64,000 bases of DNA from a virus. This document shows, piece after piece, positions 51,229 through 58,323 of the stretch (within the stretch, counting starts at the first letter, position 1; each line of letters begins with the position of its first letter). The notes below the pieces were generated by a model. It saw only the letters and a list, made by a program, of their open reading frames with translations. It did not search any database and was not told the DNA's origin. A program made the translations under genes and the position numbers. The DNA is taken from the IMG/VR virus record IMGVR_UViG_3300010263_000119; one strand, written 5' to 3'.

Positions 51229-52395
51229 TCATTCAAAAAGATCATGGATTTTACCCATTACATTAGACATATAACTTCTTGCACTTTGATTAAAACCACT
51301 ATCAGGATATTTCTTCACTAATTCGATTTCAACACCTAGAAGAAAATTGAAACACTCCTTAAAAAATGTAGTAGACAAATCATGCTTATTTGCTTTATCT
51401 CCCATTATCAAGATAATTTCCCAAAACCCTCCCCGTTCACCGGGATTTAAATCACACATGATACTAATCATTTCTTTTAAATCACTATCAGTCTGCATTA
51501 ACTGTATTATTTCATATCCATCTATGCCTAAATTAATCTCTAAAAAGCTCAAGATGTAATTGAGCATTTCCGCTTTATCGTAAATACTAAGTGTTGACTG
51601 CTTAATCACTTCATAAATTATTCCAATGCTGAAAAATTCAAAGCATTGATTAATATCCAACTCCTCACTATCACCACTTTCATAAGCAAGAATCTGATAA
51701 ATTTCTTTCATTCTTTGATGATAATCAATAAACGAAACCTCGCACATGTAATCAAAGCCTTCTTCCGGTAAACTTTGACACTCTTCAAATTGATGGTGAA
51801 TGGCATCAATAAATTCCTCACAGATTGGCAAAGCGACTTCACTGTCTGATTTTCCTAAAATCGCAAATCGCATTACAATAGATGAAAACAATTCTATAAT
51901 TTCAGACAATATTTTTATATCACTATTTGTTTTATACATAGCTTTAAAGAAGAGTCGCCAAAAAGTGCCTACTTTAGAATTCGAAATACCTACTAAAGCT
52001 TCGAGATATTGGCTTGTCTGATTATGGCTTTTCACTGCTACAAGAAAATCGTATTTAGAAAAGTTTACGTTAAGCGTTTTGAAAAACAATTCCAACAGTT
52101 TGTTTTGTTCCGCGGTTGGCGGGAAAACTTGCGCTTGCAAAACTTTCAGGAAAGCATAAAACGAAAGCGTAAGACTACCTCCTGCAATATCATTAGGTAT
52201 ATAATCTGATGTATAAGCTTTAGTTGCAACAGCAGTGATTACTTCAAACATATCAGCCGCGGCATCAGCAATTTCTTCATTACACTTTTGATAAAAGTTT
52301 CTCTGTTTCTCCTTTTGTTTCTGCTTATCCCTATAATAATCACGCACCGCCATTGATGTTGAAAAGATTAAGGCATCCCAAAATCCAAAAGCCAC
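51229..52395 (-). CDS. Hypothetical all-alpha protein
   Basis: 388-aa intact ORF, no recognised motif. Confidence 0.65.
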   Translation of the reverse strand: MAFGFWDALIFSTSMAVRDYYRDKQKQKEKQRNFYQKCNEEIADAAADMFEVITAVATKAYTSDYIPNDIAGGSLTLSFYAFLKVLQAQVFPPTAEQNKLLELFFKTLNVNFSKYDFLVAVKSHNQTSQYLEALVGISNSKVGTFWRLFFKAMYKTNSDIKILSEIIELFSSIVMRFAILGKSDSEVALPICEEFIDAIHHQFEECQSLPEEGFDYMCEVSFIDYHQRMKEIYQILAYESGDSEELDINQCFEFFSIGIIYEVIKQSTLSIYDKAEMLNYILSFLEINLGIDGYEIIQLMQTDSDLKEMISIMCDLNPGERGGFWEIILIMGDKANKHDLSTTFFKECFNFLLGVEIELVKKYPDSGFNQSARSYMSNVMGKIHDLFE

Positions 52396-52466
52396 AATAA
52401 ATCCACTCCTTTTTCTATCAACTGAATATTATTAAGTAACTTGTACCATATAATAATTCACCTTTT

Positions 52467-52970
52467 TTACGCAAATATTAGTTGTGCTGCTCGGTCAAAA
52501 TCGTAATTTAAATTAACCATTGTAATTTTTTCGCCCACAGCTGCAGTAATTTTATTTTCAATAGATTTTATTGAATACCCATTGGTTATAGATATGTATT
52601 TTATTGTCCATCCTCTGTTTTGGTTTCTTTCCGCTTTCAATATTCTAATTCCTTCAAATTCAGATATCAAATCAGATGCAATTTTGACTATTTCATGTGG
52701 CCGGTTATCAACCTCATTTTTAGGCCTTTTTCGTTTAATCTTCGGCAGAAAGTAGAAACAGCCTTTTTCAATACAGTTATGTTCTTTTATATGTTTTTTT
52801 GTAAGAAATCCACTGTGCCTAGAATATTGACAGTAACCAACACAATTTCCGCTGCCGGTTATGCGCCCGTCTATGCACCGCCGAATACATTTGCTGCCGC
52901 TTTTCTTTTCATAATACAAATAATCTTTGTGAGGTATAATTGTTGTGTTTGCACTGTTATTAAACATCAA
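52467..52970 (-). CDS. Cys/His metal-binding hypothetical protein
   Basis: CVGYC...H.GFLT...KEHNC..KGC; overlaps the upstream stop. Confidence 0.65.
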   Translation of the reverse strand: MMFNNSANTTIIPHKDYLYYEKKSGSKCIRRCIDGRITGSGNCVGYCQYSRHSGFLTKKHIKEHNCIEKGCFYFLPKIKRKRPKNEVDNRPHEIVKIASDLISEFEGIRILKAERNQNRGWTIKYISITNGYSIKSIENKITAAVGEKITMVNLNYDFDRAAQLIFA

Positions 52971-56400: not shown

Positions 56401-57129
56401 AGAGAACAAGTCAGTTGCAGGGCACAATTTACTAATCTGTTGCATCACCTGTTCCGGGGCGGCCCAGCCTTTGGAATATGATACTCTTTTTATCATTTTA
56501 TTTGTTATATTATTAATAGGTACTAGTGTATCAAAATCAAATAAAGCAATATTTTTACCCTTGCCGGTGTGATCTTTCGTTACAATAAAATTGCTCGGTT
56601 TCACATCTAAATGTAGATAACCATTTTGATGATATCTATCAATCGCGTTTGTCAAAGCAAGAGCCGTGCTGATAATATCTTCAATATCTTCCGACGTGTC
56701 CTTATCATAGCTAATACCGTTCTCTGGGATCATTGCAATATACTTAGTATTGTTATACTCAAAAATATCAAGTGAATAAACAACTGTGCTTTTTGTGAAG
56801 TTAAAATTCTGCATCTGGCTGGCAATCTGATAAGACTGCGTAAAGTGAGTAAAGGCAAATTCTTTATCGCTATCATTCTCCCAAATCAGAACATTATCAT
56901 TTCTTGTAATGTTTAATGCAGCAGGATAGCATTCTTTCAACTTAACGTTTTTTTTGTTACCAAATCCATCCTCATAATGTGCATCATATACAATGCAGTT
57001 TGCACCAAAACCAATTATTTCATCAATGATATATTTTTTATATGAACCAACCTCTGAGCCAATCAATAAAGGACTTCGTCTCACTATGTATATTTCTCCT
57101 TTCATAAATTTTTCTATCATATCAAACAT
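53404..57129 (-). CDS. Ser/Thr kinase - STAND (NB-ARC-like) NTPase - helical C-terminal fusion
   Basis: GFGANCIVY, KLKE, HLDVKPSN, DFD, WAAPE, DLFSVG; FVGRNNEL, GPGGIGKS, LLVLDN. Confidence 0.88.
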   Translation of the reverse strand: MFDMIEKFMKGEIYIVRRSPLLIGSEVGSYKKYIIDEIIGFGANCIVYDAHYEDGFGNKKNVKLKECYPAALNITRNDNVLIWENDSDKEFAFTHFTQSYQIASQMQNFNFTKSTVVYSLDIFEYNNTKYIAMIPENGISYDKDTSEDIEDIISTALALTNAIDRYHQNGYLHLDVKPSNFIVTKDHTGKGKNIALFDFDTLVPINNITNKMIKRVSYSKGWAAPEQVMQQISKLCPATDLFSVGAVLFERIMKRQVSNSDMSSLAKWEFDNRFDTKHVNPKAKRLLTEIFHKTLASNVKKRYQKASELSAALEELLYVITSGKPYIISSFPVSTCHFVGRNNELEELHNALKKNGKVFVFGPGGIGKSELAKRYIEIFADKYDAIVFLRYNGSILETLRSIKIKGIIDMNEKLNAIEELCDSRTLLVLDNFDVALDEDEYLERLLSLGGNTIIITRTDFSNVYPDIPCIKIEGMALNELRTIFEIESSRTLRDEEYIKYMPIIRMGKQCTYYLVLLAKLLKSGDYSLEELYDKVYAGLSEFDKTEDILNTKDGIRIKQTVAKAMTELFKLTKLTTQQSEMLLLLYHLSCLNLTKKQIREIVSIDKAVPVSERINALNALIERGFIDHNFWTITDTLTISDVIKDTIDYDVNPSIIDCNIVKMFIEQEFFKPKDFLSKINYDDVINQDRAEYSFCCIFKIIVNSNLSNHSTQEYFIDLLYRMLGGEESAAHYIWNEYTNHILHFLNIYSRDGMMDAVSKVKADIVLLTVFCYQTRVELFAPVEDIHIESMKRAEKFFYHALKEIEKHSIEDGRLIDDLCRPFVHCTHSSVRCQMMNPKLIDKILELQPACIKTNVTPSKSFEVNVFINSDYERHFLNQVKRQTKVMKDDERKEYIYRVLGKIMLNGLKVPFIIDDELYALRKELFSVCADRFENVEAIDPQDFAPDPIGISEHMFRIGWKYFMASIYIDAPERVNLRKEQDDWLLDVFGGEFATLDLPDFLEAIQNIDSAKRLCNAIDRYRSFVDAASDKELSEEDKKLLALTSERLNDKLNDSLILDDFPCDDGEILPINVEDAKAELYSINAVMHCILEDKAQIRTFLEKLIEHSKTYISYLSDDALIKFEHDIEADLYFWGAVNRLSNMSCADIVLPYLLDYTNMVKKRLKTYSDYDESWMYSYYKKIVDVASKAKEDLLPPSPEERLLWSIFKDEDSKESKALENYKHIINEYTSKIESITGFKYNP

Positions 57130-57153
57130 ATTTTATTATGCCTTTTTTGGCAT

Positions 57154-58323
57154 TTAATCTGTAACTTTCGTTGATTCGACTTGTTCAAAAACTTCTTGTA
57201 TTATATCACGAAACATATCAAGTGGTCTCTCTGCTTGTGCACAAAATAAGAATAACCAATCAAAAGGGTTGCCATAATAAAGTCCAGCATAATTGCAGTC
57301 AAACAGCAAAGAATCAAGCTGAGAAATGTAATCATCAAAATCATACTCAATATCCAACCATTGCGATTTATACCATGTTATATATGAGAAGAGTAGAATA
57401 ATTGATTTGCGACGTTCTTCAGAACACATGTCTTTTTTGCTAAATGTCAGCGCTTCAGGAAAACGGTTTTTAATCTCTTTTGAGAGATTCACGTTGTTAA
57501 ACACCGTCTTTGTACCGCGATTACCAGTAACATTTATTTCAGTGATTACTTCAAATAATAGATTGCTTGATATTTCATTTCCGTGTATCCATTTGCCTTT
57601 AAAGTTTTCACGATTTTCAGGCAGATTTATTTCTTCAAAAGCAACTCTCTTTGCCTCGTGCAGAAGCCTCTTAAATGTTTCGGTTGCTGTAACACTGTTT
57701 TTCTCAAAATTATACCAGTGAGAATTGATATAATAAACAAGTTCAGCTTCATCAATTAACTGTTCAACATCCTTTTTGATTACAATTGTATTCTTTGTGA
57801 TATCAGTCAAATGTATGGCATCAGGTTGTATTGAATGAATTAGTTTTTGTGCATCCTTCCAAATTTTTTTATTTTTTAGACAGAAATAATATATTAATTC
57901 ATCGTAACTACGATAATTAAAAGCGCGATCAAGATAAACTCGGTGAAACAGATTCTTTGTTTCATCTAAATTAAGTTGAAGTGAAAAGGCAAGTGCAAAC
58001 ATTGCTTGCCGACTTGCTTCACCTTTCTTTGGTCGCACCCCTTTCTTAAACCAGTTAACCAAGGTGTTGTGACTAGCTATTTCTGATATGTCAACACCAG
58101 TGGTTTCACACTGCTTGTACAAAAAAGGAATAACATTATCTGAACTTAATTTCTCAGAAGGATACTTCTTTTGTATAATAGAAAGCAATCCATCACCAAA
58201 CGAGCGGAAGCTATCTTTACTGTTTAAAAATGTAAGAGCAAGCGAATAATCTTCTGTTTCATCCCATTCGTTGGCGATTTCCCACAATTTTTCCTCAAGA
58301 AAATGTGTATATGGAAACTTCAT
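57154..58323 (-). CDS. Putative HTH-containing regulator/partner of the kinase-NTPase
   Basis: TLVNWFKKGVRP...ALAFSLQLNLDET; 24 nt upstream of the kinase gene. Confidence 0.6.
   Translation of the reverse strand: MKFPYTHFLEEKLWEIANEWDETEDYSLALTFLNSKDSFRSFGDGLLSIIQKKYPSEKLSSDNVIPFLYKQCETTGVDISEIASHNTLVNWFKKGVRPKKGEASRQAMFALAFSLQLNLDETKNLFHRVYLDRAFNYRSYDELIYYFCLKNKKIWKDAQKLIHSIQPDAIHLTDITKNTIVIKKDVEQLIDEAELVYYINSHWYNFEKNSVTATETFKRLLHEAKRVAFEEINLPENRENFKGKWIHGNEISSNLLFEVITEINVTGNRGTKTVFNNVNLSKEIKNRFPEALTFSKKDMCSEERRKSIILLFSYITWYKSQWLDIEYDFDDYISQLDSLLFDCNYAGLYYGNPFDWLFLFCAQAERPLDMFRDIIQEVFEQVESTKVTD

Follow-up and report, generated by a model that had tools for sequence, protein, structure and literature searches.

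The window analysed here is the whole 64,000-nucleotide (nt) stretch of viral DNA recorded in IMG/VR as IMGVR_UViG_3300010263_000119. Five consecutive open reading frames (ORFs), called here A to E after their order and separated by short gaps, lie on its minus strand at 51229-58323 (Table 1). The original prediction, made from the sequence, had regarded these co-oriented and closely spaced genes as one defence or signalling system, built around a fusion of a protein kinase to a STAND (signal transduction ATPase with numerous domains) NTPase resembling the eukaryotic NLRs (NOD-like receptors). ORF calls in the window place the genes exactly where they had been reported, and all motifs quoted for the product of B are present in its sequence. 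Comparison of gene neighbourhoods indicates, however, that the conserved unit is A plus B, and not the five genes.

Table 1. Genes, domains and signals of the A-E block, in window coordinates
Feature	Position	Strand	Description
Candidate promoter region of A	58391..58499	-	Two sigma-70-like hexamer pairs and palindrome AAAACAAG-N6-CTTGTTTT (58391-58412)
Gene A	57154..58323	-	389 aa; XRE/Cro-C1-type HTH (helix-turn-helix) at ~aa 40-134 and conserved all-helical C-terminal domain without known family; core
Gene B	53404..57129	-	1241 aa; kinase, STAND NTPase and helical C-terminus; core
Gene B, kinase domain	56170..57042	-	~aa 30-320; Hanks-type Ser/Thr, non-RD (HLD), DFD replacing DFG
Gene B, NB-ARC-like STAND NTPase module	55150..56124	-	~aa 336-660; Walker A GPGGIGKS (K368), Walker B LLVLDNFD
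Gene B, C-terminal all-helical region and stop codon	53404..55149	-	~580 aa; presumed sensor arm; most variable part of B
Gene C	52967..53299	-	110 aa; zf_Tbcl treble-clef zinc protein; clade-specific accessory, non-core
Gene D	52467..52970	-	166 aa from ATG at 52967; Cys/His-rich; facultative neighbour
Gene E	51229..52395	-	388-aa helical protein; alternative ATG 14 codons in; independent cargo
Intrinsic-terminator-like hairpin	51097..51121	-	3' of E; 11-bp stem, 5 GC pairs, T-rich tail

The A-B gene pair and the architecture of B

A profile of A was searched against GTDB, one genome per species, and 77 loci were retrieved, almost all in gut, rumen or digester Clostridia. The linkage of A to B is obligate. 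A gene of the B type adjoins A in 72 of the loci, the remaining 5 being contig ends or A fragments, and an A homologue lies directly upstream of each of the 6 B homologues examined in metagenome contigs. The two genes are co-directional with A first in 47 loci, divergent in 24, and co-directional with B first in one; the spacers of the divergent pairs mostly measure 116-420 bp. The divergence of A is correlated to that of the kinase domain (Spearman 0.81), a value to which shared ancestry alone could contribute. Clustering of 1166 neighbouring ORFs gave no third conserved component beyond integrases and sporadic families. Flanking genes differ from locus to locus, and the pair therefore appears to move as a self-contained mobile cassette, patchily distributed in 1-2 copies per genome. 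Relatives of the cassette adjoin phage head genes, LlaJI, an NB-ARC-TPR gene, Fic, OLD-TOPRIM, AbiEii and integrases.

Product B is a fusion of a Hanks-type kinase with an NLR-like STAND NTPase in which catalytic and Walker motifs are intact, as had been proposed. The Pfam model Pkinase (PF00069) matches residues 107-303 at 52.6 bits, above the cut-off of 31.7 (E 5.7e-14), and the motifs YLHLDVKPSN, LFDFD and WAAPE are read in this part of the protein. Residues G40, G42, K65, H173, D175, K177, N180, D198, D200, P225, E226 and R302 do not vary among 24 aligned homologues. They include the Gly-rich loop, the beta3 Lys K65, the catalytic loop H173-x-D175-x-K177-x-x-N180, the metal-binding D198 of the DFD motif, and APE; the equivalent of the alphaC Glu is uncertain. 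As the catalytic residues are all invariant, the kinase is predicted to be active. Kinases of the non-RD type do not depend on activation-loop phosphorylation, and are suited to activation by induced proximity. Matches of B in PADLOC, NCBIfam and PHROGs are to generic kinases only. Among the 25 PADLOC (v2.0.0) matches listed of 33, all are to kinase-domain models (PD-T4-6, MkoA, mad6); PD-T4-6 is matched over residues 31-317 at E 5.5e-19, and phrog_2361 is matched as well.

The NTPase module carries the two Walker motifs given in Table 1, and G38, G40, G41, G43, K44, D106 and N107 (numbering of alignment A3) are invariant. P-loop and STAND families of Pfam match residues 337-447 weakly. Neither NB-ARC (PF00931) nor any nSTAND model rises above threshold in B, the scores being 27.0 bits for ATPase_2 (cut-off 33.2), 25.9 for AAA_16 (cut-off 32.6) and 14-17 for nSTAND1/3/6. 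Since the STAND models stay below threshold, B is best described as a sequence-divergent STAND protein of the NB-ARC clade, an assignment that rests on fold and motifs. Many relatives of B have precomputed PF00931 matches. NACHT (PF05729) has no Pfam match in B, and a precomputed one in a single distant relative (P0059). The AlphaFold model of B has a mean confidence (pLDDT) of 81.9. In it, the NTPase module has an NBD-helical-winged-helix fold. Searched with Foldseek, the module retrieves Apaf-1 (E 3e-7), CED-4, Roq1, Sr35 and NRC1, as well as Avs4 (8dgf) and EfAvs5 (9jap). In VIA comparisons the module matches ZAR1 (Z 13.8, root-mean-square deviation (rmsd) 3.3 A over 223 aa), Dark (Z 13.4) and Apaf-1 (Z 13.2), and superpositions on NB-ARC proteins have an rmsd of about 3 A over 200-228 residues. 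ORC/Cdc6 AAA+ proteins give similar scores, as expected of related AAA+ folds.

The long C-terminus, described as helical in the original prediction, is so in the AlphaFold2 (AF2) model, where its last ~580 residues have pLDDT values mostly >85. It is also the part of B that changes most. In one locus (L011) identity falls from 54% in the kinase to 40% in the NTPase and 25% in the C-terminus, and C-terminal similarity is undetectable in all other GTDB loci. Proteins of the B type range in length from ~890 to 1555 aa. This gradient of conservation, together with the length range, fits a diversifying sensor arm. The kinase-NB-ARC architecture recurs in about 80 homologous clusters. The nearest NTPase relatives lacking the kinase are organized as TIR-NB-ARC-TPR or NB-ARC-TPR proteins, and the replacement of kinase by TIR among them suggests effector swapping.

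Protein A and its predicted contact with the kinase

Protein A has no match in Pfam, PADLOC, NCBIfam or PHROGs. Its family comprises at least 295 homologous clusters (47-77% identity), and is conserved to the same degree as the kinase domain of B. The HTH-like character originally assigned to the 389-aa protein is borne out by structural comparison, which points to the XRE type. In the AF2 model (pLDDT 83.9, pTM 0.83) residues 40-134 form a five-helix, lambda-repressor-like fold, whose VIA neighbours are Caur_2278 (Z 6.0), EspR (5.9), the TP901-1 CI repressor (5.2), PrgX (5.2) and DdrO (5.0). A wide VIA search with the model added further XRE proteins, among which ComR and SinR, at overall Z of 4-6. 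An AlphaFold database cluster annotated as XRE family regulator matches A at E 2e-5, and structural neighbours found in the ESM Atlas carry HTH_3, HTH_26 or HTH_31 domains. The rest of the protein, some 250 residues, is helical and conserved. The A model has no Foldseek match in PDB or BFVD at E <= 0.001, and the A profile no meaningful match among PDB sequences.

The kinase is the best conserved part of B, A is equally conserved, and the C-terminus of B is replaced between loci. For these reasons, A was paired with B(1-335) for complex prediction. The interface score ipSAE was 0.75 (range of three runs, 0.73-0.76), whereas none of three controls exceeded 0.01. The mark set for ipSAE is reached by 58 of 80 solved complexes and by 2 of 110 mismatched pairs, a calibration only rough here, own alignments having been used. 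Runs share at least 55% of the contacts, and the partner pLDDT is at least 76. Helices 216-223 and 316-342 of A lie against kinase residues 225 and 228-229 (APE/alphaEF), 259-265 (alphaG) and 296-301. The interface includes invariant residues of both proteins (P225 and D261 of the kinase, D331 of A); invariant R302 adjoins contact 301, and invariant Y332 and L340 of A fall within the contact runs 330-331 and 337-342. The HTH is outside the interface. This face of the kinase C-lobe, around alphaG and APE, is a docking place for protein substrates and regulators, as eIF2alpha on PKR. A is thus predicted to dock on the C-lobe of the kinase (alphaG/APE/alphaH-I face) by its C-terminal helical domain. 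Candidate phosphorylation sites of A are S252, T271 and T273, which are invariant and belong to an exposed region (residues 240-300).

The palindrome located upstream of A (Table 1) is a possible operator or leader hairpin. Inverted repeats of the form ACAAG-N(6-12)-CTTGT are found within 400 nt upstream of A in five loci (window, L002, L005, L024, L060). The motif, picked after three instances had been seen, has 19 matches in 1.14 Mb, and the five upstream of A compare to ~0.5 expected; the enrichment is only suggestive of an operator. As a general operator of A the motif was rejected, being present in 5 of ~78 loci only and defined post hoc.

Two side observations concern the HTH of A. A 343-aa Macro-domain protein, encoded next to a D homologue (L088:9626-10657), has a segment in common with A, the one flanking the HTH (34% identity over 62 aa, E 0.003), and HTH-Macro proteins are among the Atlas structural neighbours of the N-terminal part of A. 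The A-type HTH may be a module that A has in common with ADP-ribose-related conflict proteins.

Genes C, D and E and the surrounding element

Gene C encodes the zinc ribbon of the original prediction, identified here as a zf_Tbcl treble clef (PF13451, 62.1 bits versus a cut-off of 24, E 4.8e-17, aa 57-99); in PHROGs it matches two unnamed families at E 0.001-0.003. The coupling reported for the adjacent Cys/His protein is also found, as the stop codon of C and the start codon of D overlap in TGATG, which is preceded by the Shine-Dalgarno-like run GAGGGGAGG. D and E have no family match in Pfam, NCBIfam or PHROGs, and neither C, D nor E has one in PADLOC. For D, the ESM Atlas gave no usable feature match and its model of the protein is poor (pLDDT 0.57); the C-terminal half has only weak structural neighbours.

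The three genes have distributions of their own. C follows B only in the closest clade (L001, L002, L003, plus a short match in L011), and D only in L001 and L002, where B is 39-67% identical and both genes are found after it; L003 has C only. The two genes are missing from nearly all of the 72 A-B loci. The D family includes 43 homologous clusters. One D homologue is located, in a complete genome, directly after McrBC and before a Macro-domain gene (L088:9001-9519), others are in an AIPR/TnpV element (L091/92; L091:3867-4343), and another follows a small HTH_3 gene (L089:9001-9471); no kinase gene is found nearby in any of these. Outside identical copies of the element (L006-L010), E is not found next to B. 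It has 101 representative relatives (loci including L093:7001-8161, L094:6150-7310 and L095:7001-8170). The closest, 41% identical, is located between pglX and pglZ in a type I BREX operon. The others include a prophage moron and a fusion protein with a Phage_endo_I nuclease domain. E is a candidate stand-alone defence gene. The BREX-borne homologue adjoins genes encoding a 161-aa protein and a HEPN_RiboL-PSP protein.

The original prediction had the small zinc proteins acting as substrates or adaptors of the kinase. That C, D and E serve the kinase-STAND protein in this way, within one five-gene system, is very improbable. Co-orientation, close spacing, the coupling of C to D, and the position of the only strong terminator after E would all suit such a system, and C and D do follow B in its closest relatives. 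Yet only A and B co-occur. Conservation of neighbourhood, the check proposed for the operon, is found for A-B and not for C, D and E: C and D are limited to a clade, D occurs without kinase in other islands, and E accompanies B in identical copies only, its relatives being found in BREX and prophage. The five-gene version is on this comparison largely refuted, and a role of C and D as kinase substrates or adaptors gains no comparative support. A, regarded in the original prediction as no more than an HTH gene, is a better candidate partner than the zinc proteins. All three genes look like neighbouring, non-core cargo, D and E each with a defence-island distribution of its own.

The block had been described as AT-rich cargo lying next to a defence operon, and this holds. 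G+C is 0.31-0.37 over 51-58.5 kb, versus 0.40-0.47 in the adjacent plus-strand operon (41-50.8 kb), whose products are a SNF2/NOV_C helicase, a DUF1156 methylase and a HEPN-DUF499 protein. Over its first 40 kb the window is prophage-like, and upstream of A, on the minus strand, a 514-aa protein and then two large serine recombinases are encoded. Prophage-like DNA and recombinases suggest that the A-E block is cargo of an integrative element. The hairpin located 3' of E (51121-51097) is the sole strong intrinsic terminator found here on the minus strand, which makes one A-to-E transcript plausible in this element. Near-identical DNA is present in bioreactor, digester and landfill metagenomes. 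Two anaerobic-digester metatranscriptomes have 3-7 contigs (169-236 nt, depth 2-4, 100% identical) covering parts of A, B and E, too sparse to show transcription, strand or operon structure. The start of B may be an internal Met (M4 or M9), because relatives of B begin at the position of residue 16 (MKRxPL).

Other features of the locus and of its relatives may be mentioned. The A-B spacer in the window (57130-57153, 24 nt) contains a small palindrome, ATGCC-AAAAAA-GGCAT, and the ribosome-binding site is only weak. The 514-aa ORF between A and the serine recombinases (58699-60243, minus strand) has no family match except a weak one to phrog_3489; it is kept in identical copies of the element, and has one partial match in L071 (46% over ~70 aa). 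The two recombinase ORFs (60654-63288, minus strand; 522 and 388 aa) are arranged in tandem with an overlap of ~100 nt. L006 carries this pair too, there with an IS21-type transposase/IstB pair and an AbiEii gene ahead of it. Three loci (L016:4784-5827, L017:1333-2385, L082:222-1268) have, between A and B, a gene for a ~350-aa protein with an N-terminal PC4 (ssDNA-binding coactivator p15) domain, which may be an optional third component in one subclade. A second Ser/Thr kinase (435 aa), a VWA protein and a PP2C phosphatase are encoded downstream of A-B-C in L003 (9420-12316); the triad resembles sets described for NTP-dependent conflict systems. The idea that the A-B cassette is typically phage-borne was rejected, only two related loci being found in IMG/VR, though the window copy and L001 adjoin phage genes.

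Possible functions and related systems

On balance, we lean towards A-B being an NLR-like sensor with a kinase output, in which A is the dedicated partner, and probably an anti-phage or signalling module of anaerobic Firmicutes. A role in defence is likely, as we infer from mobility, AT-rich cargo, defence-gene neighbours, the diversifying sensor arm and the patchy distribution. At rest, A would be bound to the kinase and would repress the cassette promoter. A trigger, most probably a protein of a phage or of another mobile element, would be sensed by binding to the C-terminus of B, and oligomerisation dependent on nucleoside triphosphate (NTP) would gather the kinase domains. These would phosphorylate A and/or host and phage proteins, and a transcriptional response or growth arrest would block the invader. 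The HTH of A would stay free to bind DNA, A being a pre-bound target or a brake, and probably the autoregulator of the cassette. A more specific version of this scheme has the non-RD kinase, once activated by oligomerisation, phosphorylate the docked transcription factor A and induce a response, so that the receptor signals instead of killing the cell. This version is unlikely; were it correct, prokaryotes would have in A-B an equivalent of NOD-kinase-transcription-factor pathways (for instance NOD2-RIPK2), drawn from an unnamed protein family.

Several points weigh against a defence sensor of this kind. No repeat family is recognised in the C-terminus of B, a region not searched on its own. 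Pfam HTH_3, HTH_26 and HTH_31 are absent from 22 members of the A family at E <= 0.1, and the structural HTH match is modest (Z <= 6). The ipSAE value is the confidence of the model itself and not a measurement; moreover, as no phospho-acceptor of A is placed in the active site, substrate, inhibitor and adaptor are indistinguishable in the model. A was found on just 2 contigs among the 2.9 million of IMG/VR. The defence context is moderate. In a scan for defence enrichment among 48 immediate neighbours, one per locus, which proved highly heterogeneous, a handful match PADLOC families (GajB, REase_II, LmuA, mad8, SspH, DRT) and many are housekeeping or generic mobile-element genes. Finally, one locus in three has A and B in divergent orientation, as is classic for a transcription factor and its target, and this arrangement would fit a regulatory circuit equally well.

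Such a circuit is the content of one alternative, by which A-B would be devoted to signalling and not to immunity: B would sense a cellular or environmental ligand and phosphorylate A, changing expression of the cassette, the host or the mobile element. We consider it fairly unlikely. It accounts well for an XRE-type HTH protein predicted to dock on the substrate-docking face of a kinase, for the regulator-target layout of 24 of the 72 loci, and for the many housekeeping neighbours, and it resembles PknK acting on VirS and the prophage kinase modules controlling lysogeny. Kinase-regulator pairs controlling neighbouring operons or prophages are documented, as CapK/CapS (PMC13373217) and KKP (PMC11341870). 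However, no conserved third gene is available as regulated output, and the cassette, mobile and AT-rich, is patchily distributed and frequently part of prophage or defence cargo. A hypervariable sensor arm and the exchange of kinase and TIR are typical of conflict systems rather than of housekeeping signalling. The mobile location would also suit an addiction module, in which B is a toxic kinase, A its HTH antitoxin and autorepressor, analogous to HipB-HipA, and the STAND module tunes toxicity; the cassette would stabilise a prophage or island, and may abort infection upon depletion of A. That a kinase toxin has an XRE-HTH antitoxin is well established, HipBA being an example. The HTH-then-kinase order, with a 24-nt gap in the window and 47 co-directional loci, and the predicted contact away from the HTH point the same way. 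This explanation is nonetheless improbable: with ~380-440 aa A is large, and its conservation exceeds that of typical antitoxins, the genes are divergent and not operonic in a third of the loci, neither protein matches a HipA or HipB family, and the >900 aa of NTPase and sensor are hard to explain in a simple addiction module.

The original prediction had not recognised the gene set as a named system, and none was found for it in PADLOC, NCBIfam, PHROGs or the literature searched. Neither A nor full-length B is covered by a curated defence model or an NCBIfam equivalog, and no paper describing the clostridial A-B family or the partner A was found in the literature search. No link between the innate immunity of bacteria and that of eukaryotes is better documented than the STAND/NLR proteins. 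To our knowledge, the characterised bacterial ones all use destructive effectors, namely nucleases, NADases, proteases or pores. What is new here is an NLR-type switch coupled to an apparently active kinase and to an HTH partner lacking a Pfam entry or a solved fold. If the preferred reading is correct and A-B is anti-phage, phosphorylation signalling would join the outputs of bacterial NLRs, in a tractable two-gene model; if A-B is regulatory, it would be a new one-step circuit from sensor to transcription factor, disseminated by mobile elements among Clostridia of gut and digester. As regards annotation, D and E are two further uncharacterised cargo families, recurrent in defence islands, that are here separated from A-B.

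Known systems share some traits with A-B. HipBA and HipBST are kinase toxin-antitoxin systems; HipB has ~90 aa, and HipBA lacks an NTPase or sensor module. The likeness consists in an XRE-HTH protein encoded upstream of a kinase, A being predicted to bind the kinase and probably autoregulating. HipA is a kinase of a different family, and no HipA or HipB match was found for A and B in Pfam and NCBIfam. Stk2 and PD-T4-6, defence kinases of a single domain, have a kinase domain homologous to that of B, and a presumed phosphorylation output leading to aborted infection. Neither has a STAND NTPase, a long sensor arm or an A-type partner, and their likeness to B is that of the generic kinase fold.

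PknK of M. tuberculosis is reportedly a Ser/Thr kinase fused to a MalT-like STAND module and a helical region, and the regulator encoded next to it, VirS, is said to be its substrate. Here the likeness is a kinase-STAND fusion acting with a neighbouring HTH factor. The components differ, since the STAND module of PknK is MalT/LAL-like and VirS is of the AraC type, whereas B is NB-ARC-like and A is an XRE-type protein with a novel 250-aa domain. PknK is in addition chromosomal and conserved in its lineage, unlike the mobile A-B with its hypervariable sensor arm. The protein is described in PMC9045387. CapK/CapS and the prophage KKP are kinase-regulator pairs carried by defence loci or by prophages, and they control immune or prophage genes by phosphorylating a DNA-binding protein (PMC13373217; PMC11341870). 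Their folds are unrelated to those of A-B and no STAND is present, CapK being a kinase of the anti-sigma-factor type, CapS a STAS protein, and KKP consisting of two kinases and a phosphatase.

Protein kinases are among the possible effector classes of bacterial NACHT/STAND proteins (bioRxiv 10.1101/2022.07.19.500537; PMC7159879), and in one of these surveys many actinobacterial kinase effectors were described as catalytically dead. Kinases receive no more than a passing mention in a 2026 survey of STAND pattern-recognition receptors (PMC12803255). A-B resembles Avs1-5 and later Avs proteins, and bNACHT, in a tripartite design that has the effector at the N-terminus, a STAND NTPase in the centre and a variable sensor at the C-terminus. 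Effectors are likewise swapped, and the distribution is similarly mobile and patchy. In contrast, no PADLOC model of Avs or NLR is among the matches listed for B, whose NTPase is nearest to the NB-ARC/Apaf-1 type and not to NACHT, and a phage trigger of A-B is putative. The effectors of Avs and bNACHT are nucleases, SIR2, TIR or proteases; that of B is an apparently active Hanks kinase, and A-B, unlike Avs and bNACHT, has in A an obligate second gene.

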